Part shown: positions 13,480 through 58,360 of the stretch, in pieces
Layout: every line of letters starts with the position of its first letter
How positions within the stretch are numbered: position 1 is the first letter of the stretch
IMG/VR virus record: IMGVR_UViG_3300044611_001420
Source: a virus
DNA length: 64,000 nucleotides
Strand: one strand, 5' to 3'
The notes under the pieces: generated by a model
Told to the model about the DNA's origin: nothing
The model's database searches: none
What the model saw: only the letters and a program-made list of their open reading frames with translations
Position numbers and translations under genes: made by a program

Positions 13480-13533
13480 AAATATTTAACTTGGTTAAAT
13501 GGATAAATTAATTAAAAATATAAGGAGTTTTTT

Positions 13534-14172: not shown

Positions 14173-14186
14173 AAATTTTTTGCTGC

Positions 14187-14215
14187 TTGACTATTAGTTA
14201 AACCCATAGTATTAT
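14187..14215 (+). promoter_or_regulatory. Sigma70-type promoter inside the glycan island
   Basis: TTGACT-17 bp-TATTAT in an intergenic gap. Confidence 0.5.
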
Positions 14216-14237
14216 TTCTTTGTATCTATTAAAATTT

Positions 14238-14843
14238 ATGTCCGAATATCCTAATTTTAAACACAATCATTTTCTTGATGATTATCTTGGCAATAAAGCA
14301 AAAATTAAACTTATTATACTTGATGTTGATGGTGTATTGACTGATGGGACAAAAGTTTATGATAGGGATCACAATCCCATCCACAAAAAATTTCGATGTA
14401 AAGATTTTACAGCAATCAAAAGATTTATTGCTGCTGGAGTTAAAATTATTATGCTTTCAGGAGATGCTTGGAATCGTGATATGGCACAAAAACGAAATAT
14501 TCCTTTCTACTGCACTCGTGGTAGTGATTTGAGCCTTGATAAGTCCAGATATATTCCTTACCTTGAGAGTAATTACGATGTGAAATCTGAAAACATGGCA
14601 TTCGTTGGTGATGATTATTTTGATCTATCTATGTTCAAAAAACTGTTCTGGTCTTTCTGTCCCTCAGATGCACCACAGATTATCAAGGATAACTCACACT
14701 ATGTTCTCAATGCAAAAGGTGGTGAAGGAGTTATTGTAGAACTCTATGATTTCCTTGTGATGAAAGGTATTGTTTCTGAATCTACAGAAGAAGAAGTTGT
14801 AGAACTTGATAAGAAAGAATCGTCCAGTGCAGATATGAAGTGA
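14238..14843 (+). CDS. HAD phosphatase, KdsC/YrbI-like
   Basis: LDVDGVLTDG, LSG, K, FVGDD..D, GGEGVI.E. Confidence 0.85.
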   Translation: MSEYPNFKHNHFLDDYLGNKAKIKLIILDVDGVLTDGTKVYDRDHNPIHKKFRCKDFTAIKRFIAAGVKIIMLSGDAWNRDMAQKRNIPFYCTRGSDLSLDKSRYIPYLESNYDVKSENMAFVGDDYFDLSMFKKLFWSFCPSDAPQIIKDNSHYVLNAKGGEGVIVELYDFLVMKGIVSESTEEEVVELDKKESSSADMK

Positions 14844-15520
14844 TGTGTAAAAGTATTACTTTGTACGGTCATCTGACTGTAGATCGAATATTGATTGATT
14901 TTAATGAAACTTTTTCTCTTGGTGGAATTGCTAATGTTTGGTCTGGTCTTGTTTCACTTGGTCATGGGTTGAATGTTAATATTGAACCCTTATCAATTGG
15001 TCATGCTCTTATCTTAGTTGATAGAAAAAATAATTATAGAGTTGGTAGAGGTTGTTTAAACATCAAAGAAAACAAAACAACTAATGTTGATTCTGATTGG
15101 CATCATATTTCATACATCAACCAACTTAAAGATACATTATTTTTATCTAAGTTAAATGGTGTAGTCTCTGTGGATATAACAAAAGAGCAACCAGAAAATT
15201 GTATCTCGGTGCTTCAATATATTGATTATCTTTTTATTGCGAAAGAAGATTTATTTATGGAAATTAAAGAATTGGGGTCTCTAGTAAAGAAATATGCAAT
15301 TATGCATCACCCAAGAGGTAGTGTTTTTTCTGATGGAAATACTGTACAAAAATATGATTTACCAGAAGAACTATATCTTTCTGATGTAAATGTTCTTGGT
15401 GCAGGAGATTATTTTGCTTCTGGATTTATTCATTCTATGACTAATGGGTGTGAAATAAAAGAGTCTATAGTTAATGCACATGAAGTTGCAAGTAAATTAA
15501 TTAAAAAAAATCTTTTATGA
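14840..15520 (+). CDS. PfkB-family carbohydrate kinase
   Basis: LGGIANV and V.GAGDYFASGFI signature. Confidence 0.8.
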   Translation: MMCKSITLYGHLTVDRILIDFNETFSLGGIANVWSGLVSLGHGLNVNIEPLSIGHALILVDRKNNYRVGRGCLNIKENKTTNVDSDWHHISYINQLKDTLFLSKLNGVVSVDITKEQPENCISVLQYIDYLFIAKEDLFMEIKELGSLVKKYAIMHHPRGSVFSDGNTVQKYDLPEELYLSDVNVLGAGDYFASGFIHSMTNGCEIKESIVNAHEVASKLIKKNLL

Positions 15521-16248
15521 AAAAATATAATTTACTTATTCCTATGGTTGGAAGAGGTCAAAGATTTCGTGATGCTGGATTTTCAATTCCTAAACAATTG
15601 ATTCAGGTTGGTCATCAACAAATGATTGACTGGAGTATGTCGTGCATTAAAAGAGAAGATTGTAATCAAATTTTTGTAATTCGTAGAGACACAGTTGATG
15701 TTAATGGGATGGATGCTGTTTTGAAAAGTAAGTTTGGTGATGATATAAAAATTGTTATTGCCGAAAATGAAACTAATGGAACAGTTTCTTCTTGTTTGCT
15801 TGCAGAAAACTATATCAATAATGAGTTGCCAATAACTATTACGACACTTGATATGTATTTTGAACCTCACTTTGATCCAAGTCAGGTTGCAAATTCTGAT
15901 GGTGTAGTTCTTACGTTTAATTCTGAAAATCCTGCATATAGTTATTCGCAAGTTGGTGATGATGGGTATGTAATTAGAACTGCGGAGAAAGAAGTAATTA
16001 GCAATCATGCACATGCTGGTCTTTATCATTTTGCAAAAGGATCAACTTTTGTAAGACTTGCAAAGGAAATGATCGAAAGAAATATTAGAGTTAAAAATGA
16101 GTTTTATGTAGCACCACTCTATAATCTTTTTATCGAAGAAGGTATGAAAATTTCCATTCAACCTATTGAACGATTGTGGTCCATGGGAACTCCTGATGAA
16201 AGAAAATATTTTTTGGATAATGAATATGAAAATCTTCAAAATCGATGA
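15517..16248 (+). CDS. Sugar nucleotidyltransferase (NTP_transferase)
   Basis: IPM.GRGQRF..AGF..PKQLI, AEK..IS, NEFYVAP.YN, GTP. Confidence 0.85.
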   Translation: MKKYNLLIPMVGRGQRFRDAGFSIPKQLIQVGHQQMIDWSMSCIKREDCNQIFVIRRDTVDVNGMDAVLKSKFGDDIKIVIAENETNGTVSSCLLAENYINNELPITITTLDMYFEPHFDPSQVANSDGVVLTFNSENPAYSYSQVGDDGYVIRTAEKEVISNHAHAGLYHFAKGSTFVRLAKEMIERNIRVKNEFYVAPLYNLFIEEGMKISIQPIERLWSMGTPDERKYFLDNEYENLQNR

Positions 16249-16543
16249 CATGAAAGGTGGATGGTTTGTTGGTGATTTTGAACCATCTACTTTTAAGAAT
16301 CCTTTTTTTGAGGTCGCACACCATCAACATAAGAAGGGTAGGGGTCAACCTCATGTCCATAAAGTCACCACTGAATTGACTTATATTATAGAAGGAGAAA
16401 TGTTAGTTTCTGGTCAACATCTTGAGAGTGGTGATATGTGGATCTATGATAAAAATGAAGTTGCTGATGTCGAGAATCTAACTAATGTCAGTCTTATTGT
16501 AGTTCGTTGGCCTTCTGTTCCTTCGGATAAGTATTTGGTATGA
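16226..16543 (+). CDS. Cupin-domain protein
   Basis: GGWFVGDFEP, H.HK..TE....G. Confidence 0.7.
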   Translation: MKIFKIDDMKGGWFVGDFEPSTFKNPFFEVAHHQHKKGRGQPHVHKVTTELTYIIEGEMLVSGQHLESGDMWIYDKNEVADVENLTNVSLIVVRWPSVPSDKYLV

Positions 16544-16995
16544 AATTCATAGCACATAGGGGAAATATCTCTGGACCAAATCCTTTAAAAGAAAATAAAC
16601 CAGAATATATTGATGCAGCAATTCAATCTGGATTTGATGTGGAAGTTGATGTTAGATTACTTAATAATAAATTTTACTTAGGTCATGATGAATCTCAATA
16701 TTATATTTCTACTACTTGGTTAAATGAAAGAATTAATTTACTTTGGATACATTGTAAAGATTTAAATACTCTTGAATTTTTTTCTAATAGTCGAAAAAGT
16801 TTTAATTATTTTTGGCATCAAAAAGATGATTTTGCGTTAACGAGTAAAAAATATATCTGGACTTATCCTGGAGAAGCATACACTTCAAAATCTGTTATTG
16901 TAATGCCAGAGTCTAATCCTAATATTGATTTTAATATTTTAAAGATGTATAATTGTTTTGGTATTTGTAGTGATTATGTGGAAAGTATAAAATGA
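16540..16995 (+). CDS. GDPD/PLC-like phosphodiesterase-fold protein
   Basis: IAHRG, EN, VEVDV, LGHD, WIHCK, GICSD. Confidence 0.75.
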   Translation: MKFIAHRGNISGPNPLKENKPEYIDAAIQSGFDVEVDVRLLNNKFYLGHDESQYYISTTWLNERINLLWIHCKDLNTLEFFSNSRKSFNYFWHQKDDFALTSKKYIWTYPGEAYTSKSVIVMPESNPNIDFNILKMYNCFGICSDYVESIK

Positions 16996-17711
16996 AAATT
17001 GCTCTTTGTTTGTCTGGCCGTCCTTCGTATTTAAAAAAAGGATATGAGTCTTTATATGATAAAATTTTATCAAAATATAATGTGGATTGTTTTGTGCATA
17101 CTTGGTGGGATCCAGGACAAGAAAATACTACGGCATATTTTGCTCCAAATTTATCATATGGAAGAAAGTATATTTGGGAACCTGATACTTTAGAGTTTAT
17201 TCAAAAAAAATATAATCCTAAAATATTTTTAAATGAACCTCAATTGATATTTGAACCTTATTCTGAAGTTAATTATGGAATGGGATCTTCACATCATATA
17301 CATAGTTTCATGTACTCTTTATACTACTCTAATCAATTAAAAAAATTTTATGAAGAAAAAAATAGTTTTAAATATGATTTAGTCATACGAAGTAGATTTG
17401 ATGTGATTTTAGAAAAATTTGATATTTGTTTAAATGAAATTGATTCAAATTATGTCTATTCTGGATCTGCTGCTCCAGACCCTAATATAAAAAAAATAAT
17501 AAAAAGTGATTTTTCTTTTGGGTCATCCAAATGTATGGATGTTTATTCTTCTATTTTTCCTAATTTTGATTATTGTTTTAAGAATATAGATAAACTGGGT
17601 GGTATATTTGTTCCTGAAAACTTAATATCTTTTATTTTGGATGAAAATAATATCCCAAAAAAATTTATTGATGAGTATGTGATAGATAAACTTATTTTGG
17701 ATAAAGAATGA
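16992..17711 (+). CDS. Putative glycan-modifying protein
   Basis: MKIALCLSG..R, FVHTW, YDLVIRSRFD; typical of polysaccharide loci. Confidence 0.55.
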   Translation: MKIALCLSGRPSYLKKGYESLYDKILSKYNVDCFVHTWWDPGQENTTAYFAPNLSYGRKYIWEPDTLEFIQKKYNPKIFLNEPQLIFEPYSEVNYGMGSSHHIHSFMYSLYYSNQLKKFYEEKNSFKYDLVIRSRFDVILEKFDICLNEIDSNYVYSGSAAPDPNIKKIIKSDFSFGSSKCMDVYSSIFPNFDYCFKNIDKLGGIFVPENLISFILDENNIPKKFIDEYVIDKLILDKE

Positions 17712-18658
17712 AAATAGCATTTCATGATAATTCTCTTTGTTTGAGAGGAACAACTGTAGTAATTTACGACTGGGCATATTGGACTAGGCATTATCTTAAT
17801 GTTGAACCAGTTATTATGTTCAATATAAAAAATAGTGTTAATGATAAACGTGTCATTAAAAAATTTGAAAAAGAATTTCCTGTTTTTGGATATGAAGATA
17901 AAAGTGAAATTGACAAAATCTTAGATAAAAATAAATGTGATTCTTTTTTTATGATAAAAGGAGGTGAACCTGATGGTGTTATTTCCTCAAGTGCTAAAAA
18001 TTTAATAAATTCAGTATCTGGATGGTGGAAACCAGAATGGATTCATGGTGATGTTTATGCTATGGGATCCAAATGGTTATCAAAAATAACTGATTATAAA
18101 ATACCTTATGTTCCTCATATAGTTCATCTTCCAGACCATAGTTTTGATATGAGAGATGAATTGGGAATTCCTAAAGATGCATTGGTTTTTGGAAGAAATG
18201 GTGGATGGGATACCTTTGATCTTCCATTTGTAAAGCAATCAATTGTAGAAACTTTAGAAAAAAGGAATGATATTTGGTTTGTTTTTCAATATACAGAACC
18301 TTTTTATAAACATGAACGAATAATATACCTCAATCCAACTGCCGATTTGAATGAAAAGGTAAGATTCATTAATACTTCAGATGTAATGATACACGCAAGA
18401 AATATTGGAGAATCTTTTGGATTATCTTGTGCAGAATTCTCAATTAGAAATAAACCTGTAATAACATATTATAATTCTCTTGAAAGAAATCATATAGATA
18501 CATTAGGAGAAAAAGGAATCTATTATGAAAATAAAAAAGATATAGATCACATTTTATTGAATATAGATAAAAATGAAATAAATCGATTGGAATGGAATTG
18601 CTATAAGGACCATTCTCCTGAAAATTTGGTACAAAAATTTAAAGAAATTTACTTATGA
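17708..18658 (+). CDS. GT-B (GT4-like) glycosyltransferase
   Basis: RGTTV..YD; HAR..GESFGLSCAEF....KPVI. Confidence 0.75.
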   Translation: MKIAFHDNSLCLRGTTVVIYDWAYWTRHYLNVEPVIMFNIKNSVNDKRVIKKFEKEFPVFGYEDKSEIDKILDKNKCDSFFMIKGGEPDGVISSSAKNLINSVSGWWKPEWIHGDVYAMGSKWLSKITDYKIPYVPHIVHLPDHSFDMRDELGIPKDALVFGRNGGWDTFDLPFVKQSIVETLEKRNDIWFVFQYTEPFYKHERIIYLNPTADLNEKVRFINTSDVMIHARNIGESFGLSCAEFSIRNKPVITYYNSLERNHIDTLGEKGIYYENKKDIDHILLNIDKNEINRLEWNCYKDHSPENLVQKFKEIYL

Positions 18659-19299
18659 ATATACAAGATTATTTAAGAGAATTGAGTAAAAATTATAAAC
18701 CTACTTCAATATTGGATATTGGAGCACATCACGGAGAATTTTCTAAATTTTGCAAGTCACTTTGGGAAGATGTGGACTTATTGATGTTGGAAGGTAATGA
18801 TGAATGCGAATTCGTTTTAGATCAATTGCCATTTGATCATTGTATTGTTCTTTTGAGCGATACTAATAAAGAAGTTACTTTATATTTGAATCCAAATAAC
18901 TTAAGTTGTACTGGAACTTCTTATTATAAAGAAAGAACAAGACATTATAAAAATAGTATAGAAGTTAAGAAAAATACATATACTCTAGATGAAGTTATAG
19001 AAGATATTAATAAAAAATATGATGTAATTAAGATTGATACTCAAGGATCTGAATTGGATATCATAAAAGGTGGATTGAAAACAGTTCAGAATTGTTCTTA
19101 TTTGATAATGGAAGTTCCTATTCTTCAATATAATGAAGGAAGTCCTTTGTTTGATGAAATAGTTGAATATATGAATAGTATTGGATTTTCTGATCATGAA
19201 ATTATTGAAGAACATATTTGGAAAGATCCAAATGAAGATGAATTTGAATGTGGTCAAATTTTTCAATTAGATGTTGTTTTTAAAAAATTAAAAAATTAA
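18655..19299 (+). CDS. FkbM-family methyltransferase
   Basis: LDIGAHHG, IKIDTQGSEL. Confidence 0.9.
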   Translation: MNIQDYLRELSKNYKPTSILDIGAHHGEFSKFCKSLWEDVDLLMLEGNDECEFVLDQLPFDHCIVLLSDTNKEVTLYLNPNNLSCTGTSYYKERTRHYKNSIEVKKNTYTLDEVIEDINKKYDVIKIDTQGSELDIIKGGLKTVQNCSYLIMEVPILQYNEGSPLFDEIVEYMNSIGFSDHEIIEEHIWKDPNEDEFECGQIFQLDVVFKKLKN

Positions 19300-19318
19300 A
19301 AATAAAAGGAGTTATTTT

Positions 19319-19990
19319 ATGCAATCTTATGGTTTAAATGAATTAGATTTAAAATTATTAAAGTATATTGATTATAAAAATGGATTTTTTATAGAAGCTG
19401 GTGCTAATGATGGGATTTCACAATCAAATACCGCTTTGTATGAGTTTCATTATGGTTGGAAAGGGTTATTGGTAGAACCAATTTATAACAAATATCTTGA
19501 TTGTAAAAAAAATAGAAAAAATTCTATAGTTGAACATTGCGATCTTGTCGGTAAAAATTATAATAAAAAAACTATAAGAGGAAATTTTGATGAAACTGGA
19601 TATGCTGAAAGTTTAACCGCATGTGTTTGTGATGATGGAGATTATAATGATGATAGGTTGGTGGAACTTAAACAAAATTTAATTGAGAATAATCAATGGG
19701 CAAAGGATAATGGATACCATCCAATTGTTGAAGTGCCTGCGATTACTATTGGAGAATTGCTAAAAAAACACAAAATAGAAAAAATAGACCTTTTTTCTTT
19801 GGATGTTGAAGGATATGAAATTTCAGCATTGAATGGACTTGACTTTTTGATAAATAGACCAAAGTATTTTTTGATTGAAATGACTTATGATGAAAGAAAA
19901 AAAGCAATTACAGAATATATGATGAGTAAAAATTATAAAATGGTCGAATATTTTACACAAAACGATTGTTTGTGGATTGATGGTAAATGA
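19319..19990 (+). CDS. FkbM-family methyltransferase
   Basis: FIEAGANDG..QSNT, GLLVEP, SLDVEGYE. Confidence 0.9.
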   Translation: MQSYGLNELDLKLLKYIDYKNGFFIEAGANDGISQSNTALYEFHYGWKGLLVEPIYNKYLDCKKNRKNSIVEHCDLVGKNYNKKTIRGNFDETGYAESLTACVCDDGDYNDDRLVELKQNLIENNQWAKDNGYHPIVEVPAITIGELLKKHKIEKIDLFSLDVEGYEISALNGLDFLINRPKYFLIEMTYDERKKAITEYMMSKNYKMVEYFTQNDCLWIDGK

Positions 19991-19996
19991 AATATT

Positions 19997-20683
19997 ATGA
20001 TAAAATTGTGTGATAGTGTAAAAAATGGAAGACTTGCAAATAAATTACTCCAGAATATTGGAATAAGTGTTCTTGCAAAGAAGTATAATTATTTTCCTGA
20101 ATATCATGATATTGAGGAAAATAAATTAATTGGACTTAATTTATTTTATGGTAAAGAAAAAAAATCAAACTTTGTTTGGTATGATGAGCATGAAAGTTTA
20201 AAAAAACTTTTAGATGGAGTAGATATAGATCATGGTATCATTTATCATGGGTACTTTCAACAAAGGTATTTTTTATTAAATTGTAAAAAATATTTAGATG
20301 ATGTAATTAAAAAAAAAGAAATAAAAAAATATAACAAAGTTTTTGTTCATGTTAGACTTGGTGATCAGACACATACAAATCCCGGTATTTTATATTACGA
20401 AAAAATATTAGATTCCATTTCGTTTAGTGGTGGAATGATTTCTAGTGATAGTTTAGAAAATCCAATGATAACAAATTTATCGGAAAAATATAATCTTAAA
20501 ATTTTTAATTCTTCTCCGATAGATACTATAATTGTTGGATCTGAGTATGAATATAGGGTTTTGAGTAATGGATCTTTTAGTTGGATGATTGGATATCTTG
20601 GAAATAATGACAAAGTTTTTTGTCCAACTACTTTGACTTATCATGGTGATATGTTTGTTTATCCTGAATGGAATTATTTTTAG
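19997..20683 (+). CDS. Alpha-1,2-fucosyltransferase-like (GT11)
   Basis: GRLAN, GYFQ, VHVRLGD, SNGSFSW. Confidence 0.82.
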   Translation: MIKLCDSVKNGRLANKLLQNIGISVLAKKYNYFPEYHDIEENKLIGLNLFYGKEKKSNFVWYDEHESLKKLLDGVDIDHGIIYHGYFQQRYFLLNCKKYLDDVIKKKEIKKYNKVFVHVRLGDQTHTNPGILYYEKILDSISFSGGMISSDSLENPMITNLSEKYNLKIFNSSPIDTIIVGSEYEYRVLSNGSFSWMIGYLGNNDKVFCPTTLTYHGDMFVYPEWNYF

Positions 20684-20690
20684 AGGTAAA

Positions 20691-21584
20691 ATGAAAAGTT
20701 TAGTTACAGGTGCAGCAGGATTTATTGGTTCAACTCTTGTTGATGAATTAATCAAACAGGGACACGAAGTTATTGCAATTGATAATGAGAGTGCAGAATC
20801 CAATGAAGAATTTTATTGGAATGATGAAGCACAAAATTATAAGTATGATATTTGTGATTACGAAAAAACCAGGTCTCTTTATGATGGGATTGATTATGTA
20901 TTTCATCTTGCTGCTGAGGCAAGGATTCAACCAGCAATTTTAAGTCCTATTGAAGCAGTTAGTATTAATTGTGTAGGTACTGTTACAGTCCTTCAGTGTG
21001 CCAGAGAAGCAGGAGTAAAGAAAGTGATTTATTCTTCTACATCTTCTGGTTATGGATTTAATGAAAAACCAAATCACGAAAATCAACGAGATGATTGTTT
21101 AAATCCATATTCGGTATCTAAAGTTGCTGGAGAAAAACTCTGCAAAATGTATAATGACTTATTCGGTCTTAAAACAATTTCCTTTAGGTATTTTAATGTT
21201 TATGGTGAAAGGCAACCTTTAAAAGGACAATATGCTCCAGTTATTGGTATTTTCTTACGTCAACGAAAGGATGGTGAACCTCTTACTATTGTTGGGGATG
21301 GGGAACAACGTAGAGACTTTACACACGTATCTGATGTAGTTCAAGCAAATATTCTTGCAGCAACAAAAGATATTGATGATGAATATTATGGTGAACTTTA
21401 TAATGTAGGTAATGGTGTGAATTACTCAATTAATGAAATTGCAAATGTTATATCTGATAATCAAATAAATATTCCAGCAAGAATTGGAGAATCACGAATT
21501 ACTCTTGCAAATAATGGAAAATTGAGAACCATTTTTGGATGGAGACCTCAAGTAAATTTAATGGATTGGATTAAAACTCAATGA
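20691..21584 (+). CDS. NAD-dependent nucleotide-sugar epimerase (WcaG/GalE-like)
   Basis: VTGAAGFIGS, FHLAA, YSVSK, RYFNVYG, RDFTHVSDV. Confidence 0.92.
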   Translation: MKSLVTGAAGFIGSTLVDELIKQGHEVIAIDNESAESNEEFYWNDEAQNYKYDICDYEKTRSLYDGIDYVFHLAAEARIQPAILSPIEAVSINCVGTVTVLQCAREAGVKKVIYSSTSSGYGFNEKPNHENQRDDCLNPYSVSKVAGEKLCKMYNDLFGLKTISFRYFNVYGERQPLKGQYAPVIGIFLRQRKDGEPLTIVGDGEQRRDFTHVSDVVQANILAATKDIDDEYYGELYNVGNGVNYSINEIANVISDNQINIPARIGESRITLANNGKLRTIFGWRPQVNLMDWIKTQ

Positions 21585-22285
21585 ATTTATTAATAGAATA
21601 TTTTAGATCCCCTGATTATCAGAGGCATAGTGAATATCTTACTTGTATTCACGAGAATTTGGAAAATGAGTACATTGATAAAGTTTATATTTTTATATCA
21701 GATGATGCAAAGTTAAATTTTCAATCTGATAAAATAGAAATTGTTCAAAGAGAAGAAAGGCCAACATATAAGGACCTTTTTGAATTTTGTAATGAAAATC
21801 TAAAAGATCAAATTTGTATTATTGCAAATGCTGATATTATTCTTGATGAAACTTTATCTGCAGTTAAAGAAACTAATTTAGATAATATTTTTGTTGCTTT
21901 AACACGATGGGAAGTATTTTGCCAAAATGGTGAGTGGTGTATTGCTCCATTTGATAATTCTTCTTCCCAAGATGTTTGGGTGTTTACTACACCAATTAAA
22001 ACAACTGAAGAAATGAATTTTACATTAGGAAAACCTGGATGTGATAATAAAATTGCTAAATTGATGGCAGAACAAGGATATACATTAAAAAATCCAGGAA
22101 AACAAATAGTATGTGCTCACTATCATATTTCTGGACATAGAAATTATAATAATGATGATAGAATTCCTGGTCCATATACTTGCTTAGTGCCAAATAATGA
22201 TATTAATACAGAGACACAACTTATTGAAATTGATGGTTTTGATGAACAAGGAAGAGCATATATTATACAGAAGGAAAATTTATAA
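21581..22285 (+). CDS. Putative glycosyltransferase (GT-A-like)
   Basis: IIANADI, ALTRW, SQDVW, GKPGCDN. Confidence 0.5.
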   Translation: MNLLIEYFRSPDYQRHSEYLTCIHENLENEYIDKVYIFISDDAKLNFQSDKIEIVQREERPTYKDLFEFCNENLKDQICIIANADIILDETLSAVKETNLDNIFVALTRWEVFCQNGEWCIAPFDNSSSQDVWVFTTPIKTTEEMNFTLGKPGCDNKIAKLMAEQGYTLKNPGKQIVCAHYHISGHRNYNNDDRIPGPYTCLVPNNDINTETQLIEIDGFDEQGRAYIIQKENL

Positions 22286-23085
22286 TGAAAATTGGAATAA
22301 TTGGAAATGGATTTGTTGGTAATGCTATATACCAAAATCTAAAAAATAAGATTCAAAATTTATTTGTTTTTGATGTTGATGAAAAAAGATCTTTAAATTC
22401 TTATGATGAAACTATAAATTCAGATATTGTTTTTGTTTGTCTTCCAACACCAATGAAAAATAAAATGGGTGGAGGATGCAATTTATCTTATATTGAATCA
22501 TTTTTTGAAGATCTTCCTAAAAATCTATCTGGGATTTTTGTTATAAAATCTACTGTTCCTATTGGAACTACCAAAGCATTAAGTGAAAAAAGATTAGATT
22601 TAAAAATAATTCATAATCCAGAATTCTTAACTGCCAGAAATTCTGTAGAAGATTTTAATAATGCTGATAGAAATATTATTGGTGGAGAAAAAGAATCATC
22701 TCAAAAATTAGAAAATTTTTATTTAAACTATTTTCCTCATATCAAAAATATTTTAGTTTCTTTTGAAGAATCTGAATCAATAAAATACTTTTCTAACACA
22801 TATCTTTCAATGAAAGTCACTTATTTTAATTTAATGTTTGATTTATGTGACAAACTTGGAATTGATTTTGAGAAAGTTAGAAGTGGTGTTTGTTTGGATA
22901 AAAGGATTGGTGAATCTCATAGTTTGGTTCCAGGCATTGATGGAGACAGGGGATTTGGTGGAACTTGTTTTCCGAAAGATTTAAATGCTCTTAATGAAAC
23001 TTTTAATGATAACGATTTGAATAGTTCTATATTTTCTGAGATTTGGAATTATAACATTAAGATTAGAAAAAATATTGATTGGTGA
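22285..23085 (+). CDS. ugd: UDP-glucose/GDP-mannose dehydrogenase, short form lacking the C-terminal UDP-binding domain
   Basis: GIIGNGFVG, CLPTP, IKSTVPIG, NPEFL, KYFSN, GFGGTCFPKD. Confidence 0.88.
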   Translation: MKIGIIGNGFVGNAIYQNLKNKIQNLFVFDVDEKRSLNSYDETINSDIVFVCLPTPMKNKMGGGCNLSYIESFFEDLPKNLSGIFVIKSTVPIGTTKALSEKRLDLKIIHNPEFLTARNSVEDFNNADRNIIGGEKESSQKLENFYLNYFPHIKNILVSFEESESIKYFSNTYLSMKVTYFNLMFDLCDKLGIDFEKVRSGVCLDKRIGESHSLVPGIDGDRGFGGTCFPKDLNALNETFNDNDLNSSIFSEIWNYNIKIRKNIDW

Positions 23086-23130
23086 ATATAATTTAGCAAA
23101 TCCTAACACAATTAGGTATAAATTACTACT

Positions 23131-23167
23131 AGAGGGGCTTGACCCCTCTTTATTTTTGCTATATAAT
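23131..23167 (+). promoter_or_regulatory. Terminator hairpin with embedded sigma70-type promoter for hli
   Basis: AGAGGGG-CTTGA-CCCCTCT; TTGACC(23139)-17 bp-TATAAT(23162). Confidence 0.7.
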
Positions 23168-23194
23168 TCTGTAATGTTTCTTAACAAAACTTAT

Positions 23195-23404
23195 ATGACT
23201 GTAACCAAAAATGAATTTGGGCAAATGAATATGTGGGCAAAAGAACCTTCTATGTATATGACTAAGGAAGATCTTGAGCGTTATGGTATTGAACCTTATG
23301 CCGAAAAGGCGGAGAAAATGAATGGACGCTGGGCAATGGTCGGTTTTATTGCTGCTATCATTTCTTATGTTGGCACTGGTAAACTCTTCTTCGGTATCTT
23401 CTGA
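23195..23404 (+). CDS. hli: High-light inducible protein
   Basis: AEKMNGRWAMVGF chlorophyll-binding motif. Confidence 0.93.
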   Translation: MTVTKNEFGQMNMWAKEPSMYMTKEDLERYGIEPYAEKAEKMNGRWAMVGFIAAIISYVGTGKLFFGIF

Positions 23405-49858: not shown

Positions 49859-50587
49859 ATGCCATTACCTAAGATTTCTACACCAACGTATGAATTGGTT
49901 TTGCCATCAACTGGGAAAACAATTAAATACAGACCATTTCTAGTCAAAGAAGAAAAGATATTAATTCTTGCTCTTGAAAGTCAAGATACAAAAGAAATTA
50001 CAAATGCAATCAAGCAAGTATTAAAAGATTGTATTTTAACAAAAGCAATTAAAGTAGAAGAACTTCCAACTTTTGATATTGAATATTTGTTCTTAAACCT
50101 TCGTTCAAAATCTGTTGGTGAGTCTATTGAATTAATTATTACTTGTGGTGATGATATGGAAACTCAAGTTCCAGTCACAATTTATATTGATGAGATTCAA
50201 GTTCAAAAAGAAGAAAATCATAGCACGGATATTAAACTTGATAGTTCTTTAGTTTTAAGAATGAAGTATCCATCTTTAGACCAGTTTATTAAAAATAATT
50301 TTGATTTTAACACAGAGCAAAGTACATCAAATATTGAAAAATCTTTAGATATTATTGCTTCTTGTATTGATATGATCTTTAATGAAGAAGAAAGTTGGGC
50401 AGCATCTGATTGTACTAAAAAAGAATTAGTTTCTTGGATTGAAACACTTGATTCAAATCAATTCAAACAGGTTGAAAACTTTTTTAATACAATGCCAAAA
50501 CTTGCACACAAAGTAAAAGTTAAGAATCCAAAGACTGGAGTGGAAAGTGAAGTTACGTTGGAGGGGTTAACATCTTTTTTCGGTTGA
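49859..50587 (+). CDS. 26: Baseplate hub subunit gp26
   Basis: MPLPKI.TPTYEL.LPS, YRPFLVKEEKIL, FF.TMPKL, LEGL.SFF. Confidence 0.92.
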   Translation: MPLPKISTPTYELVLPSTGKTIKYRPFLVKEEKILILALESQDTKEITNAIKQVLKDCILTKAIKVEELPTFDIEYLFLNLRSKSVGESIELIITCGDDMETQVPVTIYIDEIQVQKEENHSTDIKLDSSLVLRMKYPSLDQFIKNNFDFNTEQSTSNIEKSLDIIASCIDMIFNEEESWAASDCTKKELVSWIETLDSNQFKQVENFFNTMPKLAHKVKVKNPKTGVESEVTLEGLTSFFG

Positions 50588-50787: not shown

Positions 50788-52563
50788 ATGGTAATAGGTT
50801 CGGTTCTGAACCCAGAAAGAATAGTAGGTAAGCAGAATACAAACCAACAACTCGCCAAAAATTTTATTTCTGGTGGTTCTTTTCTTGGAACATCTTCAAT
50901 TGCTTCTGCTGCAAATAAAATAGTAGGATTTCAAAGAGGGACTGCAAAACCAGTCCCATCTTCAGTAGATTCAATCGTAAGTACTATTTCTACAAATATT
51001 ACAAACAATATAACAAGCACTTTAAATAATACTCTTCAAAGTTTCACTACAGATTATAAGAAAAGAGTATCTGATGTTGATTCTGCGAAACCAACCGGCA
51101 TTCTAAGTAAGTTTTTAAGTACCTATAAGAGTGTAATACAATTCATTCAGTTTTTTGGCAACAAAAAATTTGTGAATAGAATAAGTGACAATTTAAAAAA
51201 TCTTTCTAAATCATTTACAGAAAGTTTTGAAGTTGCAAAATTGATTCGTCAGGTCATTGTAAAAATAGTACAACAATTATCAAATCTTCCAAAAGCATCT
51301 CCAGGTGGTGGAGGTGGAATTGACATTGATGTTGATGTTCCCATGGGTGGTGTCAGAAAGAGCGCACCACGAGGACTTGGTAATATGTTCAAGGGAAGAG
51401 GCAAAATGCTTGCCCTTGGTGCTGGTGCTCTTGGATTGGGTGCTGTTGGTGCTGGCACAGTGAATGCTCTTTCTAATGTTGATGAAATTAGAGCAGGAAT
51501 GCTTCAACCTGGAGATGGTGGAGACATCATATCAACGTTTAGTTCTGCAATAGAAAGATTTATTACAGCAATTAATACAATGATTGGTATTGGAAAGGGT
51601 CCTTCCAAACCTCCTGGTGGTGGTGCAGGAGGTGGTGGGGGAAGTCCTGGAGGTCCTGGTCCTGGAGGTCCTGGTCCTGGATCTCCAGTGGATTATAGTA
51701 ATTTGAAAAGTGGTGATATATCTACTATGGCAGGCAAATCAGCAGTTTTATATGATGAATATAGAAATCTTGGATATACTGATGAGGGAGCAAAAAGATT
51801 AATTGCTGAAATTGGCAGAGAAGGTGGGATGGACAATAAAAACTTGTTTGGAACTCATACTGATCCTTCTGCAAAAATTCCTAATACTGGTATGTTTAGT
51901 TGGAATCAAGATAGAAGAACTGCTTTAATCGATCAGGCCAAAAAGGCTGGGGTTTGGGATGAGACCAAAGGTCAAATAAAAGAAACTGCTGAGGGATTGA
52001 GATTCCAAGCAAGATTTTCTGCAAATGAAATTAAGACGAGAGGTGCTGGAGTTCCTGAAGCATTAACCACTCAAGGTTATTCTGGTGCTAAAATATCACA
52101 ATTACTTAGAGATAAGTATATTGTTTATAGAACTGATCGTGGTTATTCTGGGGGTCCTGATCCAGAATATGGATCAGTTAAAACTGGAGAATGGTATAAA
52201 AAATTGACTCCAGGATTGGAAAAAACATATAAACCAAAACCAGGAATAGGAGGTAGTTATGAGGAATTGCCTAAAGAATATGCTGCAGCATATAAGGCTG
52301 GAAAATTAAAATTAGAAGAATACAACAACTTAGCAACAGGTGTTTCTCAAGTTGCTCAAACAGCAGCACAATCACAAACAAATATTGTACCAATAGATTT
52401 GTCTGGTGCAATGCCTCAACAATCTCAAGGTGGTGGAGGAGGTATTTCTGCACCACCATCAACTCAAAAAAATGGTCCATCAGTTCCATTATTACCTTCT
52501 GCAAACACTGATAATTTTTTAGTTTTATATTCAAGAATGGTTTATAATATAGTAGACGGATAA
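50788..52563 (+). CDS. Baseplate hub/tape-measure-like protein with lysozyme-like domain
   Basis: Position after 26-51; A..LIAEIGRE, GMFSWN..RR, Q..F motifs of tail lysozyme type. Confidence 0.6.
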   Translation: MVIGSVLNPERIVGKQNTNQQLAKNFISGGSFLGTSSIASAANKIVGFQRGTAKPVPSSVDSIVSTISTNITNNITSTLNNTLQSFTTDYKKRVSDVDSAKPTGILSKFLSTYKSVIQFIQFFGNKKFVNRISDNLKNLSKSFTESFEVAKLIRQVIVKIVQQLSNLPKASPGGGGGIDIDVDVPMGGVRKSAPRGLGNMFKGRGKMLALGAGALGLGAVGAGTVNALSNVDEIRAGMLQPGDGGDIISTFSSAIERFITAINTMIGIGKGPSKPPGGGAGGGGGSPGGPGPGGPGPGSPVDYSNLKSGDISTMAGKSAVLYDEYRNLGYTDEGAKRLIAEIGREGGMDNKNLFGTHTDPSAKIPNTGMFSWNQDRRTALIDQAKKAGVWDETKGQIKETAEGLRFQARFSANEIKTRGAGVPEALTTQGYSGAKISQLLRDKYIVYRTDRGYSGGPDPEYGSVKTGEWYKKLTPGLEKTYKPKPGIGGSYEELPKEYAAAYKAGKLKLEEYNNLATGVSQVAQTAAQSQTNIVPIDLSGAMPQQSQGGGGGISAPPSTQKNGPSVPLLPSANTDNFLVLYSRMVYNIVDG

Positions 52564-54659
52564 TGAAAAAAGTACTTTCTTCTCCTTTAGTTTCTGCTTC
52601 CAATAACATAGTTTCTTTTAGTGGAGATTCCTCAAGAAGACTAAAAGGAATTCAGAGAGATGTTGTTGATTTCTCTAAGTTTTTAAACACTCAAAATAAA
52701 GAAATTAATAGAATAAAATTACCTGAAAAAAGAAAAATTAAAGAACTTGCGAACTTAAACATTGCTTCAAGTTTTGGTTCTCCTGGAAATTTATTATCAT
52801 CTTTACTTGGAGGGGCACTTGATGTTGCTGGTTTTCTTGGTAATATGTTCCCTCCAAGAGGAAAAATGGGTGCTCCTCAAAATACAAGAGGATTGAGACC
52901 ACCAAAACCAATAGTTTCTGGTTCTAAGTTACAATTTGGAGGACTCAAATCTGTAGGTATTTTGAATGCAGTTTTTTCTGGATTGGATTTTGCTCAGGGA
53001 TTGGCAGAGGGAGAAAGCACAGGTCAAGCAGCATCGGGAGCAGTGGGCAATCTTGCTGGTTCATTACTTGGTGGTGCCATTGGGCAAGCACTAATTCCAA
53101 TACCTGGGCTTGGTTTTGTAATTGGAAGTATGGCAGGTGGATTTTTGGGTGGTTACACCGCAGATAGAGCATATGAACTTGCAACTGGTGGTGCTGGAGG
53201 TGTGTCTGGAAAAGTTGAAGAAAAACTAAAGGCACAAGAACAACAACAAAAGGCATCAGTTCAAGAAAGTGGATTTGGTGATGTAATAAACAGATTTAGT
53301 GACTCTGTAGGAAAGTTTGAAAACTTTGTCTATAAGTCATTTGCTTCTGTGGTAAATGGTGCCGCAGCTGCTGCTGGTTCTGATGAAATGATGTTGGATT
53401 ACGGTTTAGACCCAGATGCAATTCCAGATGCTCCTGAAATTCCAGGAGAACTTCCAGATATGACTGCTGAAGGTGGTCAAATGCCCAGCAAATATACTTC
53501 ATCTCCTTATGGTTGGAGATGGGGAAGAATTCATAGTGGTGTTGATTATGCTATTACGGAAGGAACACCAGTAAGTGTGATTCAACCTGGTCAAGTAACA
53601 TACGCACAATTTAATGATGGTGGGTATGGATATGCTGTACAAATTGCACATCCTGGTGGTTCTAGTAGTTTTTATGGGCACTTAAGTAAAATATCAGTCA
53701 AAGAAGGACAACAAATAGAACCTGGAACTGTAATTGGAAATGTAGGAAGCACAGGAAATTCTACGGGACCTCACGTTCATTTTGAAGTTAGACAAGGAAG
53801 TAAAAAATTAGAAATACCTACAAGTGAGGGAGATAAGTATTTTAGATTCGGTGGCAATGTAAAAGTCAAACCAAAGGCAGGAGTTTCGGGAGCAGGTTCT
53901 AATCCTTTTGTTTTAGAATTACACGCAGACCCAAATGCAAAAGGACAAAAGACAGGATTAATCCCAAGCAATACCAGTCCAGATACTGCTGTTTCTCAAG
54001 CACTTGTTTCTAGTTTCGGGACTTATGGTAAAAATTTTAGAGGAGGATTGGGTGTTACAAATAGAGGTGGAAATATTCTAGAGTCAGATATGGCATTAGG
54101 TGCTGAAGCAAATGCAAAAAGAATAGTTGAAGCAATGATGAAAGACCCTAAACGTGCATATCATATTTTTGCAGGACACGCTGATGTAACAAAAGGTGAA
54201 ACTGGTGCTCCTGGAGAAAAGGAATATAATTTAAAAACTGCTGAATTGGTTGAAAAATTAGCAAAAGCACAGAAATTAAATGTAATGTACCATAAATCTA
54301 TTATTGCAAATGAAGCAAGTGATCCAAATTCAAATCTTTCCAGAATTAAAGCAATAATGGATGCTTCAAAGAGACCTGGAATAGGAGGTCCAGATTTAAC
54401 TCCAGAGGCAATTGCTGCATATCAATCTGGAATGATTCAAAATCTCCAACAATACCCTTCTTATAATCAACTACAACAGGTTACAACAATTATACCAATG
54501 ATGATGAGTCCTCAAGGTGGAGGAGGACAACAAAAACCAGTCTTTATTCCAGTTGGAGGTGGTGGTGGAGGAACTGTAATTCTTCCTGGTCCAGATGAAG
54601 GACAACTGGTAAATAGTCTTATGAAGACTATGTTACTTACTAATCTGTCAGCAAGCTAA
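52563..54659 (+). CDS. Baseplate hub/tape-measure-like protein with M23 peptidase and permuted amidase domains
   Basis: HSGVD...YGHL...GSTGNSTGPHVHFE (M23); LELHAD...ILE followed by AGHAD...EK.YNL. Confidence 0.8.
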   Translation: MKKVLSSPLVSASNNIVSFSGDSSRRLKGIQRDVVDFSKFLNTQNKEINRIKLPEKRKIKELANLNIASSFGSPGNLLSSLLGGALDVAGFLGNMFPPRGKMGAPQNTRGLRPPKPIVSGSKLQFGGLKSVGILNAVFSGLDFAQGLAEGESTGQAASGAVGNLAGSLLGGAIGQALIPIPGLGFVIGSMAGGFLGGYTADRAYELATGGAGGVSGKVEEKLKAQEQQQKASVQESGFGDVINRFSDSVGKFENFVYKSFASVVNGAAAAAGSDEMMLDYGLDPDAIPDAPEIPGELPDMTAEGGQMPSKYTSSPYGWRWGRIHSGVDYAITEGTPVSVIQPGQVTYAQFNDGGYGYAVQIAHPGGSSSFYGHLSKISVKEGQQIEPGTVIGNVGSTGNSTGPHVHFEVRQGSKKLEIPTSEGDKYFRFGGNVKVKPKAGVSGAGSNPFVLELHADPNAKGQKTGLIPSNTSPDTAVSQALVSSFGTYGKNFRGGLGVTNRGGNILESDMALGAEANAKRIVEAMMKDPKRAYHIFAGHADVTKGETGAPGEKEYNLKTAELVEKLAKAQKLNVMYHKSIIANEASDPNSNLSRIKAIMDASKRPGIGGPDLTPEAIAAYQSGMIQNLQQYPSYNQLQQVTTIIPMMMSPQGGGGQQKPVFIPVGGGGGGTVILPGPDEGQLVNSLMKTMLLTNLSAS

Positions 54660-55972
54660 TGTCACAATCTGTAGCAGCATTTAAACCAAATTATTTTATC
54701 ATACAATCATTAGATGGTAGCAAAAAAATTGATATTACCAATTCATTATTGTTTTTTGATTACTTTGAGGATATTTTATCTCCTTGTATAACTGCTACTG
54801 CACAAATAGTTAATAGTACAAGTTTGTTTAATCTTTTACCAATTCGTGGTGGAGAAAAAGTTTCCATTAGTGTTGATACTGCATTTGGTGAATTTTTATT
54901 TGACGGTGATACTGCTTTTTATGTTTATAAGGTTAGCAATCTTGATGCACAAAAGTCAAGTGAAATGTTCACTTTACACTTAGTTTCTCGTGAAGGTTTG
55001 ACGAATGATACTGTCAGATGTGAAAGAAAATATACAGGTAATATTCAAACTACAGTAACTAAAATTTTAAAGGATGTATTAAAAACTAAAAAGTTTAAAA
55101 GTGAAAATATAGAATCAACATCAAACGAATTTTCTTTTATTGGAAATAATAGAAAACCATTTCACGTTTTGACTTGGTTAGGTCCAAAAGCAGTTCCTGC
55201 AAATGGGCAAAATTCGGGAACATCTGGAGGTGAAAATAGTGGAATAGCAAAGGGAACTGCTGGATTTTTATTTTATGAGAATAAAGACGGTTTTAATTTT
55301 AGAAGTATTGACAGTTTAGTATCAAGCACTCAAATACAAAATAATAGTGCCGATAAGGAGTCAATATATAGTTATCAGTATGCTCCAATCATTGAGAGTA
55401 ATAATGTAGAAACAAATTTTAGAATTTTAAATTATAAGTATGAAAAGAATATTGACTTGATGAAAGCATTGAGAGTTGGTATGTATGCAAATAAAACATA
55501 TTATTTTGATTTGTATTCAAGTACTTTAGATATTTACAAATACACAGTGAAAGATCAAGTCAAGAATAAATTAGGTGCTTCTAAAAGTATTGCTGTATCT
55601 GAAGAATTTGGAGATAGTATTAGTAGAATTATGTTTAAAGCTTCCGATAGAGGAAACTTAAATAATGATGGAACGATAAGTGGTAAGTCTAGAAGTGGTG
55701 CTGATATGTCAATGTCTTATTCTAGATATAATTTATTGTTCACTCAAGCACTAAATATGGTTATACCTTGTAACATAAGATTGAAAGTTGGAGATATTAT
55801 AAAGGCACAGTTTCCAAGAATCACAAGAACAGACAATAAAGAAGCAGATGACGAACAGAGTGGAAACTACTTGATTAAAGAATTAAGACATCATTTTGAA
55901 GGAAACCAAATGGTTACAAGTGTAAAACTAATTCGTGATAGTTACGGTCTTTATGGTCCTCAAAACGAGTAA
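54659..55972 (+). CDS. Baseplate hub protein (gp27-like)
   Basis: YFEDILSP, LPIRGGE, FLFYE..DGFNFRSID, SG.YLI..L.H. Confidence 0.65.
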   Translation: MSQSVAAFKPNYFIIQSLDGSKKIDITNSLLFFDYFEDILSPCITATAQIVNSTSLFNLLPIRGGEKVSISVDTAFGEFLFDGDTAFYVYKVSNLDAQKSSEMFTLHLVSREGLTNDTVRCERKYTGNIQTTVTKILKDVLKTKKFKSENIESTSNEFSFIGNNRKPFHVLTWLGPKAVPANGQNSGTSGGENSGIAKGTAGFLFYENKDGFNFRSIDSLVSSTQIQNNSADKESIYSYQYAPIIESNNVETNFRILNYKYEKNIDLMKALRVGMYANKTYYFDLYSSTLDIYKYTVKDQVKNKLGASKSIAVSEEFGDSISRIMFKASDRGNLNNDGTISGKSRSGADMSMSYSRYNLLFTQALNMVIPCNIRLKVGDIIKAQFPRITRTDNKEADDEQSGNYLIKELRHHFEGNQMVTSVKLIRDSYGLYGPQNE

Positions 55973-55977
55973 GAAAA

Positions 55978-56187
55978 ATGGATTTACAACAATTCATACA
56001 TAATATAAATGATGAATTGGGAAATTCATCATTAAATAAACAAAGAAAAAGATACTTAGAAGCACATTTGGAAGAACTTTTGGAATATCAAAAGAATAAT
56101 CCAAATAATACTTTAATACCAAATGCATTAGAATTATTTTGCGATTTAAACCCAAACGCACTGGAGTGTAGAATTTACGATGATTGA
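55978..56187 (+). CDS. cp12: Calvin-cycle inhibitor CP12
   Basis: C-terminal LELFCDLNPNALECRIYDD; 69 aa. Confidence 0.85.
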   Translation: MDLQQFIHNINDELGNSSLNKQRKRYLEAHLEELLEYQKNNPNNTLIPNALELFCDLNPNALECRIYDD

Positions 56188-58360
56188 AGAAGCTTTATTG
56201 AAATCCAATTACATTGGTAAAGATGGTTTTTATTGGTGGATTGGACAAGTAGCAAATCAAAACTCTTGGAAAAGCAAATCTCAGTTTTCGGAGGAAAAGG
56301 GTTCTGACGGTAAAGTGTGGGCAGCAAGATGTAAGGTAAGAATTGTTGGTCATCATACTTTTGATGGTAATGTTCTTCCTGATGATGATTTGCCTTGGGC
56401 ACAGATTATGATGGACCCTGCTTTTGGAAGTGGTCAAGGTGGTATGGGAGCAACAATAAATTTAAAGGGTGGTGAGACTTGCTTTGGATTTTTTATTGAC
56501 GGAGATGATGCACAACAACCAGTCATAATGGGTCTTCTTCATCGTAGTGATGGTGTTAAGAATTTAATCTCAGAAGAGGTAATAGCAAAAGAAAAAAGTT
56601 CTCAATTCAAACCATTTACTGGACATCCTGGAAATAATATCCCAGCAACTCAAAGAAGTGCAAGAAAAGAAAAAGAAATTATTCCTGAAAATCCTCAAAC
56701 AGAAACTTCTCCACTATCAACAAAAGACAAAGTAGATATTGCTTTTAATTCAAATGTTGGATTTTACACTGGGACTACTCGTGTATTTCCTCAGTATGGA
56801 GATAGACTTCAATTTGATGCATCATCTATATGGCAAGTTGCGAAAAAAGCAGATGTAGAAATTACAATACCTAATGGTTGTCAGAATGGATTAATCGGAG
56901 ATATTTCACAAGCTCTTCAGAGCTTTATGGCAATTACAAATGGATTAGACCGATATTTAAATGTTTATGTAGATACTGTATTAAATGAAATTGTAGATAT
57001 AGGAAATCAAATTCGTAATACTGCTAGGTCTATACTTAGTATCGTAAAACTCATTATCAATAATTTAAGAAATACAATTTTTAAATGTATTACTTGGGCA
57101 TTTAGAAAATTAGTCGGTCTTGTTGTTCCACAACCCCAACAAAAGATTGTTTTGGAATCAATGAAGAAAATTCTTGATGGAATTTTTTGTATTCTAGAAA
57201 AACTTCCATCAAGTCTTTTGGATTTTATTACAAATGCTTTACAGGATTTAGTAGATAGAACAGTAAATGTCCCTCTTTGTGCAGCAGAAGAATGGACTGC
57301 TGGAATTCTTGCTAAACTAATGAATGCGATTGAAGATGCATTATCTGATATAATGTCTGGTATTAGTTGGTTGACTGGTGGATTAGGAACAATTTCTGGA
57401 ATTTTAAATCAAGCAAGTTCTTTGGCATCTCAAATTTTTAGCTTTCTTGAATGCACTGGACTTGCTTGCAAGAAACCACATACTTGGGCAGCAAAATTTG
57501 GACCAAGTGAAAAAGAAGCAGATGATTGGAAAAAAATGGTTAGTAATGTTAATGTGTTTAAAACTGCTGCTAAAGCAGGAAGTTCAATAGAAGTTTCTCT
57601 TCGTAATACTCCTTTATATTCTGCAACTGATACTTTTGGGTCTGGATTTGGTGGTTTGATTGATAGAGCACTTAATAATGCATCTTGTGTGTCTAAAGTT
57701 CTTAATCCACAGAATCAGGATGATTTAATGAGAATGCCAATTGGAAGCAGATGGAAAACGTGCATACCACCACAAGTTTATATCACAGGTGACGGAGTTG
57801 GTGCTAAAGCAATTCCAATAGTTGGTGATAATGGTAAGATTTTCTCTGTTCAAATTGCCAACAGGGGAGTTGGTTATACAAATGGAACAACAGATGTAAG
57901 AATTGTTGATAAAAGTAATTATGGTTTAGGTGCAACTGCAAGAGTTGAGGTGAATGAAAAAGATGGTGGTATTGATAAAGTTATAATTCTAAATTCTGGT
58001 GATGGATATTGTAAAGGCAATGTTACAGCACCAGGAATAAGTTCTTCTATAACTGGCACAGTTACTGATGTTGTGGTAGATAAACCAGGATATGGATATA
58101 CAACTGGGGATAAAATTACTGATGGTAAAAATACTTATGAACCAATTATTTCTCCTGGAAGTGGAGCAATTGTAGATGTTAAGTTGCCAACAAATATTAT
58201 AGGAGAATTTAAAACCATTCCCACACTAACTATAAATACCAACACAGGAGTAGGAGCAGAACTCATTCCAGTTATGCAATTTACTCCAAATTATTCTTCA
58301 ACAACTGGTGTTCCAGCAGTCTCTGGAATCGCAGTAACCTCAGTGATAGATTGTGTATGA
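56180..58360 (+). CDS. 5: Baseplate hub gp5 (N-terminal OB-fold; no T4-lysozyme domain seen)
   Basis: G.DGFYWWIGQV, RCKVRIVG.H, LPWA, GFF.DG..AQQPVIMG. Confidence 0.85.
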   Translation: MIEEALLKSNYIGKDGFYWWIGQVANQNSWKSKSQFSEEKGSDGKVWAARCKVRIVGHHTFDGNVLPDDDLPWAQIMMDPAFGSGQGGMGATINLKGGETCFGFFIDGDDAQQPVIMGLLHRSDGVKNLISEEVIAKEKSSQFKPFTGHPGNNIPATQRSARKEKEIIPENPQTETSPLSTKDKVDIAFNSNVGFYTGTTRVFPQYGDRLQFDASSIWQVAKKADVEITIPNGCQNGLIGDISQALQSFMAITNGLDRYLNVYVDTVLNEIVDIGNQIRNTARSILSIVKLIINNLRNTIFKCITWAFRKLVGLVVPQPQQKIVLESMKKILDGIFCILEKLPSSLLDFITNALQDLVDRTVNVPLCAAEEWTAGILAKLMNAIEDALSDIMSGISWLTGGLGTISGILNQASSLASQIFSFLECTGLACKKPHTWAAKFGPSEKEADDWKKMVSNVNVFKTAAKAGSSIEVSLRNTPLYSATDTFGSGFGGLIDRALNNASCVSKVLNPQNQDDLMRMPIGSRWKTCIPPQVYITGDGVGAKAIPIVGDNGKIFSVQIANRGVGYTNGTTDVRIVDKSNYGLGATARVEVNEKDGGIDKVIILNSGDGYCKGNVTAPGISSSITGTVTDVVVDKPGYGYTTGDKITDGKNTYEPIISPGSGAIVDVKLPTNIIGEFKTIPTLTINTNTGVGAELIPVMQFTPNYSSTTGVPAVSGIAVTSVIDCV

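Follow-up and report, generated by a model that had tools for sequence, protein, structure and literature searches.

A putative circularly permuted Amidase_3 domain beside an M23 peptidase in a tail-module protein of uncultured marine cyanomyoviruses

A 698-residue tail-module protein and its parts

The DNA analyzed here (the window) is a 64,000-nucleotide stretch of viral sequence, IMG/VR record IMGVR_UViG_3300044611_001420. Its list of open reading frames (ORFs) includes, at 52563..54659 on the plus strand, a gene for a 698-amino-acid (aa) multidomain protein of a tail/baseplate-hub module. From the N terminus, the protein consists of a Gly-rich hydrophobic part, an M23 peptidase domain, an amidase-like domain, a Q/G-rich tail, and a conserved hydrophobic C terminus. 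The amidase-like domain (residues 447 to 603; 53901-54372, plus strand, inside the ORF 52563..54659) is the main subject of this analysis, and it very probably is a single compact zinc-hydrolase domain of the Amidase_3 (N-acetylmuramoyl-L-alanine amidase) fold in a circularly permuted form. The searches found an identical copy of the whole protein (P0001) along with over 30 metagenomic homologues that are nearly identical. In this protein, NCBIfam and PHROGs give a name to the M23 part alone, which is also the part matched by PHROG tape-measure families, and no annotation in Pfam, NCBIfam, or PHROG recognizes the permuted domain.

The translation of the N-terminal part contains Gly/Ala-rich hydrophobic segments with a glycine-zipper-like appearance at residues ~60 to 215 (52740..53207, plus strand; limits approximate). 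Pfam matches to Gly-zipper families were weak and were seen in some family members, and the segments are possibly a membrane-inserting or tape-measure-like part. The Peptidase_M23 domain follows at residues 323 to 415 (53529..53807, plus strand; Pfam PF01551, E value of 1.6e-29) and scores 102.3 bits against a cutoff of 28.7, which places it in that family. Its metal-binding motifs, HxxxD (HSGVD at residue 324, with H324) and HxH (HVH at residue 404, with H404 and H406), are intact, and M23 structures in the PDB matched the family profile with E values down to 4.5e-16. The domain lies directly upstream of the permuted domain on the same polypeptide.

The first half of the permuted domain (residues 447 to 527; 53901..54143, plus strand) was delimited by HHalign, by a half-domain hidden Markov model (HMM) termed CH, and by an AlphaFold (AF2) model, and corresponds to the C-terminal half of the canonical Amidase_3 fold. 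Its elements are the strand LELHAD, which contains H454, the strand GLIP, a helix, the FRGGLG loop, the strand NILE, which contains E507, and another helix. The linker KDPKRA (residues 526 to 531; 54138..54155, plus strand), located by HHalign against a tandem canonical profile, is, in the AF2 model, the loop that leads from H75-86 to E93-98, and it joins the canonical C and N termini. The second half (residues 532 to 603; 54156..54371, plus strand), delimited by Pfam, HHalign, and the half-domain HMM termed NH, corresponds to the N-terminal half of the canonical fold and consists of the strand HIFAGHAD with H539, the E552-KEYNL helix with E552, the strand NVMY, and the DPNSN helix. Thus, the motifs run in the order given in a preliminary description of this DNA, with FVLELHAD, TGLIP, NFRGGLG, and GNILE (residues 449 to 507) ahead of HIFAGHAD, GEKEYNL, and DPNSNLS (residues 535 to 595). 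The M23 peptidase that it placed next to the domain was also found there by Pfam (102 bits, residues 323 to 415).

The translation ends in a C-terminal tail (54372..54656, plus strand), which is Q/G-rich and of low complexity at first and then hydrophobic (…VNSLMKTMLLTNLSAS). This hydrophobic C terminus is kept in the divergent homologues P0037 to P0040. In P0037, a metagenomic protein of 757 aa, the permuted domain is 89% identical and the C terminus is the same, but the upstream region is different and has no Pfam M23 match, with the remnant 'GNTGRSDGPHFHIG' alone visible. Read from the sequences, this suggests that modules have been replaced in tail proteins that are orthologous in other respects.

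Order of the halves in relatives

The 167-aa domain was compared exhaustively by HMMER with 1.84 billion cluster representatives, of which 32 matched at an E value of ≤1e-3. Twenty-seven of the 32 matched as one stretch with the halves in the window's order, and three (P0067, P0069, and P0070) carried the halves in the canonical order. The same-order members were either multidomain proteins, with the domain after or before M23, Hydrolase_2, or DPBB, or stand-alone proteins of 192 to 319 aa. The permuted domain was also found on 15 IMG/VR viral contigs at 79 to 99% identity, one of them 247 kb long, and in dozens of marine metagenomic proteins, and the permuted form was found in none of the cultured phages in the collection. 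The best cultured tblastn match of the whole protein, Synechococcus phage B23 gp10, shared the M23 part alone and was rejected as a relative because it has no amidase-like domain. A cluster look-up placed the stand-alone permuted proteins on short metagenomic contigs only. Three of these proteins (P0056, P0058, and P0065) share a conserved C-terminal extension (…MSK.E/Q..A.YD.LR…P..A..EG.KMH.A(Y/F)F.K), and a scan of IMG/VR with P0056 gave no match.

The canonical order was found in picocyanobacterial and phage proteins. P0069 is a 291-aa picocyanobacterial protein that represents a family of 568 proteins, and this is the family whose motifs, AGHAD, LEIHFD, SGLIP, and FRGGLG, the preliminary description had compared with those of the domain. 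The family gave 127 matching stretches in a one-genome-per-species collection, and among the matches listed, nearly all were from marine or freshwater Synechococcus, Prochlorococcus, Cyanobium, and Vulcanococcus, including WH7803. Its members are hypothetical proteins, some named N-acetylmuramoyl-L-alanine amidase by NCBI, and are not covered by Pfam. Among metagenomic phage proteins, P0070 (634 aa) has the canonical order and an N terminus that reads as gp5-OB-like, and P0067 (699 aa) has the canonical order and a strong Phage_lysozyme2 domain. A further homologue search with P0070 returned P0070 itself alone and no more canonical-order phage relatives. Two cultured phages also carry the domain or at least half of it. 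Microcystis phage Ma-LMM01 gp094 (annotated as baseplate protein, phrog_30576) contains it in the canonical order at residues 341 to 519, with 86 bits to the canonical HMM, and adjoins the M23 gene gp095. Synechococcus phage S-CREM2 gp208 (annotated as endolysin, virion protein) contains at least the N-terminal half at the canonical position.

Several comparisons showed that the two orders are related by a clean exchange of halves. With phmmer, residues 8 to 71 of the window domain matched residues ~178 to 242 of the cyanobacterial proteins, and residues 113 to 157 matched residues ~126 to 170. The E values for the window domain went down to 2e-13 against family members (a small set of retrieved proteins) and were 2.7e-4 against P0069 (the whole 1.84-billion library). 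HHalign of the permuted profile against the canonical profile gave two crossed alignments, one of positions 90 to 162 with 5 to 97 (probability, 99.1; E value, 1.2e-18) and one of positions 1 to 88 with 91 to 194 (probability, 98.9; E value, 1.5e-17). Against a tandem canonical profile, these were replaced by a single 160-column alignment (probability, 99.9; E value, 4.8e-33), and the reciprocal of this test gave an E value of 3.2e-33. Therefore, the whole domain is significantly similar to the divergent cyanobacterial/cyanophage family, provided that the permutation is allowed for. With its halves swapped in silico, the window domain gave one continuous match to the canonical HMM that spanned the junction; in the native order, the match fell into three pieces. 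The half-domain HMMs agreed with this; CH matched residues 445 to 527 at an E value of 2e-32 and NH matched residues 528 to 601 at 1e-30, and all permuted members were CH-NH whereas all canonical members were NH-CH. Based on these sequence comparisons, the domain is a natural circular permutation of two domain halves with respect to its known relatives, and the reversed order noted earlier is borne out.

The fold models led to the same picture. AF2, run on the family alignment, modeled the window domain as one compact domain (predicted local distance difference test [pLDDT], 92.3; predicted template modeling score [pTM], 0.88), with the elements E10-16, E26-28, H37-46, H58-61, E65-69, H75-86, E93-98, H113-130, E134-137, and H152-164. 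An independent model of the canonical P0069, with a pLDDT mostly above 90 in the domain, has the same elements in rotated order. Under the rotated mapping, the DSSP assignments of the two models agreed at 139 of 160 positions (87%), compared to 16 to 64% at other circular shifts.

The permutation apparently arose once. In a maximum-likelihood tree built from 29 rotated domains and 13 canonical ones, one branch with support of 99/99 split the permuted from the canonical forms, and 98% of the bootstrap trees required one order change, with the caveat that rotating the sequences could itself add signal near the junctions. A single separating branch is consistent with one permutation event. To our knowledge, the whole Amidase_3 superfamily has the canonical order, which would make the permutation the derived state. 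In the canonical order, a block of strand-GH, helix-E..NL, strand, and helix precedes a block of strand-xH, strand, helix, loop, strand-E, and helix. Here, the second block stands at the front, with the new termini in the loop that connects helix 2 to strand 3 of the canonical fold and the old termini joined by KDPKRA. Most simply, the domain would have been duplicated in tandem and then have lost the outer halves; the half-domain HMMs detected no duplication intermediates (1.5-copy forms, NH-CH-NH or CH-NH-CH) among ~55 proteins. The preliminary description had also raised the case of homologues that natively have this order. Close homologues do share the permuted order, so it characterizes the family and is neither peculiar to this protein nor an artifact of assembly. 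However, distant homologues and bona fide Amidase_3 domains have the other order, so the claim of a permutation stands.

Active site, relation to Amidase_3, and alternative readings

The four residues expected in the active site are encoded at 53922-53924 (cac, H454), 54081-54083 (gag, E507), 54177-54179 (cac, H539), and 54216-54218 (gaa, E552). The preliminary description had noted that all four appear to be present, and they proved to be invariant as well. An alignment of 29 family members (32 to 86% identity to the window domain) has ten invariant columns, namely, H454, E507, H539, E552, E452, D541, and four glycines. H539, E552, H454, and E507 map to H109, E140, H199, and E253 of P0069, respectively. 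An Amidase_3 profile, built from PlyPSA and 35 cyanobacterial Amidase_3 domains, aligned full-length to the canonical family (147 columns; P value, 6e-5; probability, 65%), and in this alignment the same four P0069 residues are matched, respectively, by the GHGG His, the E..nL Glu, the SIHxN His, and the LvE Glu. Thus, H539, E552, H454, and E507 of the window domain correspond to the Zn ligands (His, Glu, and His) and the catalytic Glu of PF01520, and the window's E-K-E-Y-N-L is a form of the Amidase_3 E-x-x-x-N-L motif. The canonical motif order, GH … E..NL … xH … E, is replaced here by xH … E … GH … E..NL. The canonical picocyanobacterial family has the Amidase_3 fold according to structure matches that include EnvC-AmiB (8c0j), and a merged profile of rotated and canonical members aligned with the Amidase_3 profile over 108 columns (P value, 4e-4). 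A protein language-model search, which serves as a lead only, had as its nearest hit a cyanobacterial cluster named N-acetylmuramoyl-L-alanine amidase family (score, 0.90). In each of five picocyanobacterial genomes, Pfam finds exactly one bona fide Amidase_3 gene (150 to 175 bits). The divergent amidase-like gene of canonical order lies elsewhere in each genome and goes unseen by PF01520 even at an E value of ≤1, so its family is a distant branch.

Several results weigh against the assignment to Amidase_3. The domain stays below the PF01520 gathering threshold of 27 bits: the whole protein scores 13.7 bits, the domain 17.5, and the second half by itself 18.6. The subthreshold match joins residues 535 to 578 to profile positions 3 to 48 of 174 (E value of the piece, 0.002). 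A Pfam scan of the first half gave no match, and five of the 29 family members give any PF01520 match at an E value of ≤1. Swapping the halves, which the preliminary description had proposed as a check, brought no gain at the sequence level against Amidase_3; the alignment of the rotated profile was neither longer nor stronger than that of the native one (36 columns and a P value of 0.0017 either way). PlyPSA as a single sequence was not significant, and PDB sequence searches with the domain, profiles A1 and A2, P0070, and Ma-LMM01 gp094 found no amidase match. The direct sequence link is weak, and the connection of the permuted family to Amidase_3 is mainly structural. Similarly, the binding of one zinc ion by H539, E552, H454, and E507, which would thereby form a single site, is inferred from fold equivalence and homology.

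Other readings of the same data were considered. One is that there is no real permutation and that the tail of one degenerate amidase copy lies next to the head of another, or that the motifs occur by chance, in halves that do not fold together. The Pfam match confined to the second half agrees with this, as do the sequential structure searches with the window model, which returned generic alpha/beta/alpha folds and no Amidase_3 structures. However, such searches are expected to be uninformative when a permutation cuts near the middle of a domain, and the flanks contain no half-domains (an M23 domain and a linker upstream and low-complexity sequence downstream). The prediction of a single compact unit, the one alignment over 160 columns to the tandem profile, and the retention of the order in all of at least 27 representatives of the family, among them stand-alone proteins whose sequence begins with the first half, also argue against it. 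Because the four key residues are among only ten invariant columns and the E value reaches 4.8e-33 once the permutation is allowed for, the motifs are not due to chance, and this reading is hardly credible. Another is that the domain is catalytically silent and merely retains the amidase-like motifs, acting instead as a structural module, binding peptidoglycan, or regulating the neighboring M23 domain. This is conceivable because bacterial pairs of M23/LytM and Amidase_3 proteins are regulatory, with EnvC-AmiB being among the fold matches, and because the domain is minimal, with ~157 residues and neither of the two insertions of its cyanobacterial relatives. Pseudoenzymes usually lose catalytic-site residues, whereas the four residues here are invariant down to 32% identity and are kept in the canonical relatives too. 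Moreover, the M23 domain, whose HxxxD and HxH motifs are both intact, does not require a partner, and the stand-alone members have no detected M23 domain. A silent module is therefore quite improbable.

It is somewhat less improbable, although still unlikely, that a permuted Amidase_3 fold with an intact metal site cleaves a different bond or substrate than N-acetylmuramic acid (MurNAc)-L-Ala, for example, as a stem-peptide peptidase, a gamma-glutamyl hydrolase like phage PghP, or a deacylase. This is conceivable because the family is a very divergent branch of the zinc-hydrolase superfamily. In our assessment, the permuted Amidase_3 interpretation of the preliminary description is supported. 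The fold and its permutation are very probable, as stated above, and, judging from the conserved residues, the domain probably is an active peptidoglycan amidase, though this is held with less confidence than the fold. We lean slightly toward the fuller account, in which an undescribed and still catalytically active permuted Amidase_3 lineage originated once in the divergent cyanobacterial/cyanophage family and then spread in abundant uncultured marine cyanomyoviruses, both in tail-module lysins and in some stand-alone proteins.

Gene neighborhood, proposed role, and known systems

The gene lies in a T4-like baseplate-hub module that begins with a tail-tube-like gene (starting at 49130). Next are a T4 gp26-like baseplate hub protein (49859..50587, plus strand; Pfam T4_baseplate, E value of 1.7e-72; phrog_150, baseplate hub) and, directly upstream of the 698-aa protein, a Gly-rich protein of 591 aa (50788..52563, plus strand). 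The latter has a weak Phage_lysozyme2 match at residues 322 to 405 (E value, 0.052) and PHROG matches to phrog_6922 and phrog_19273, both of unknown function. At the position of T4 gp27, a tail-hub protein (54659..55972, plus strand; phrog_350, tail protein, E value of 1.2e-97) starts at the stop codon of the 698-aa gene. Its best cultured relatives are Kyanoviridae cyanomyophages (S-SCSM2R, S-SSM7, and P-SSM2) at 34 to 44% identity, which indicates that the window comes from a divergent uncultured T4-like cyanomyovirus. A gp5-like baseplate hub/spike protein follows (56180..58360, plus strand; phrog_1922, E value of 1.4e-112), in which Pfam detected no lysozyme domain and a weak Gp5_OB match only. 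Location of lytic functions in the two upstream proteins fits with a gp5-like protein that has no lysozyme. Since the 591-aa protein has a weak Phage_lysozyme2 match and P0067 a strong one, the amidase-like, M23, and tail-lysozyme modules seem, from their sequences, to be shuffled among tail proteins. Far from this module, at 4861-23404, about 20 codirectional ORFs form a low-GC island (26 to 29% versus 33 to 40% elsewhere). They encode nucleotide-sugar and glycan biosynthesis functions, including a GDP-mannose 4,6-dehydratase, a GT47 exostosin-like transferase, a DXD/GT25 transferase, an FkbM methyltransferase, a GT10 fucosyltransferase, epimerases, and a UDP-glucose/GDP-mannose dehydrogenase. 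This region is a large glycan gene cluster in a cyanomyovirus-like genome.

A role of the 698-aa protein in the virion is reasonably likely. It was called a baseplate protein in the preliminary description, a name that agrees with the hub-module neighborhood, and a virion location is predicted from gene order and from the annotations of distant relatives. The protein may be located in the virion tail or hub, and the glycine-zipper-like N-terminal segments and the conserved hydrophobic C terminus suggest that it could be tape-measure-like or ejected. After tail contraction, the amidase domain would work together with the upstream, active-looking M23 endopeptidase to cut peptidoglycan at two bonds, the cross-links by M23 and MurNAc-L-Ala by the amidase domain. 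This would open the wall locally for genome delivery and replace the lysozyme that T4 carries on gp5. The new termini may permit the domain to be inserted in line with M23 in a protein of the tail hub or of a tape-measure-like kind that must refold after ejection.

The fold and the chemistry are known, the topology is new, and the family is unannotated; full-text literature searches turned up no relevant account of a permuted Amidase_3. The analysis gives a functional reading for a tail-module protein that is conserved in a widespread group of uncultured marine cyanomyoviruses, and it suggests a route through peptidoglycan for phages whose gp5-like spike has no detectable lysozyme domain. It also links a conserved picocyanobacterial family of hypothetical proteins to the Amidase_3 fold. 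A compact amidase scaffold of ~157 residues with alternative termini may be of interest for lysin engineering.

Among known systems, the picocyanobacterial family (Synechococcus sp. CC9311 P0114 and P0069) shares with the window domain the motifs AGHAD, E..(Y/W)N, LE(L/I)H(A/F)D, GLIP, FRGGLG, and ILE, 34% identity over 160 aligned columns at the profile level, and the same invariant H/E/H/E residues and predicted secondary-structure elements. However, its members are chromosomal cellular genes, whose products have a long N-terminal region as well as two additional insertions, and their halves are NH-CH, the reverse of the order seen here. Ma-LMM01 gp094, P0070, and P0067 contain the same divergent domain in phage tail/baseplate-module proteins, beside or fused to M23 or other lytic modules, but in the canonical order; the M23 peptidase of Ma-LMM01 is encoded separately, by gp095. 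The solved Amidase_3 structures (CwlV 1JWQ, PlyPSA 1XOV, AmiC2 5EMI, Rv3717 4M6G, and AmiB 8C0J) are more distant, with a similarity below the family threshold and the order permuted in the window domain. Unlike these PF01520 enzymes, the window domain has no autoinhibitory helix or cell-wall-binding domain, and it is embedded in a tail-module protein rather than in an endolysin or a cell-division amidase. Tail-associated lysins include the lysozyme domain of T4 gp5 and the tape measure proteins that bear M23 domains. The 698-aa protein differs from T4 gp5 in carrying M23 and a putative permuted amidase in place of lysozyme, but it resembles these lysins in its position in the tail-hub gene module and in its presumed role, the local digestion of peptidoglycan at genome delivery.

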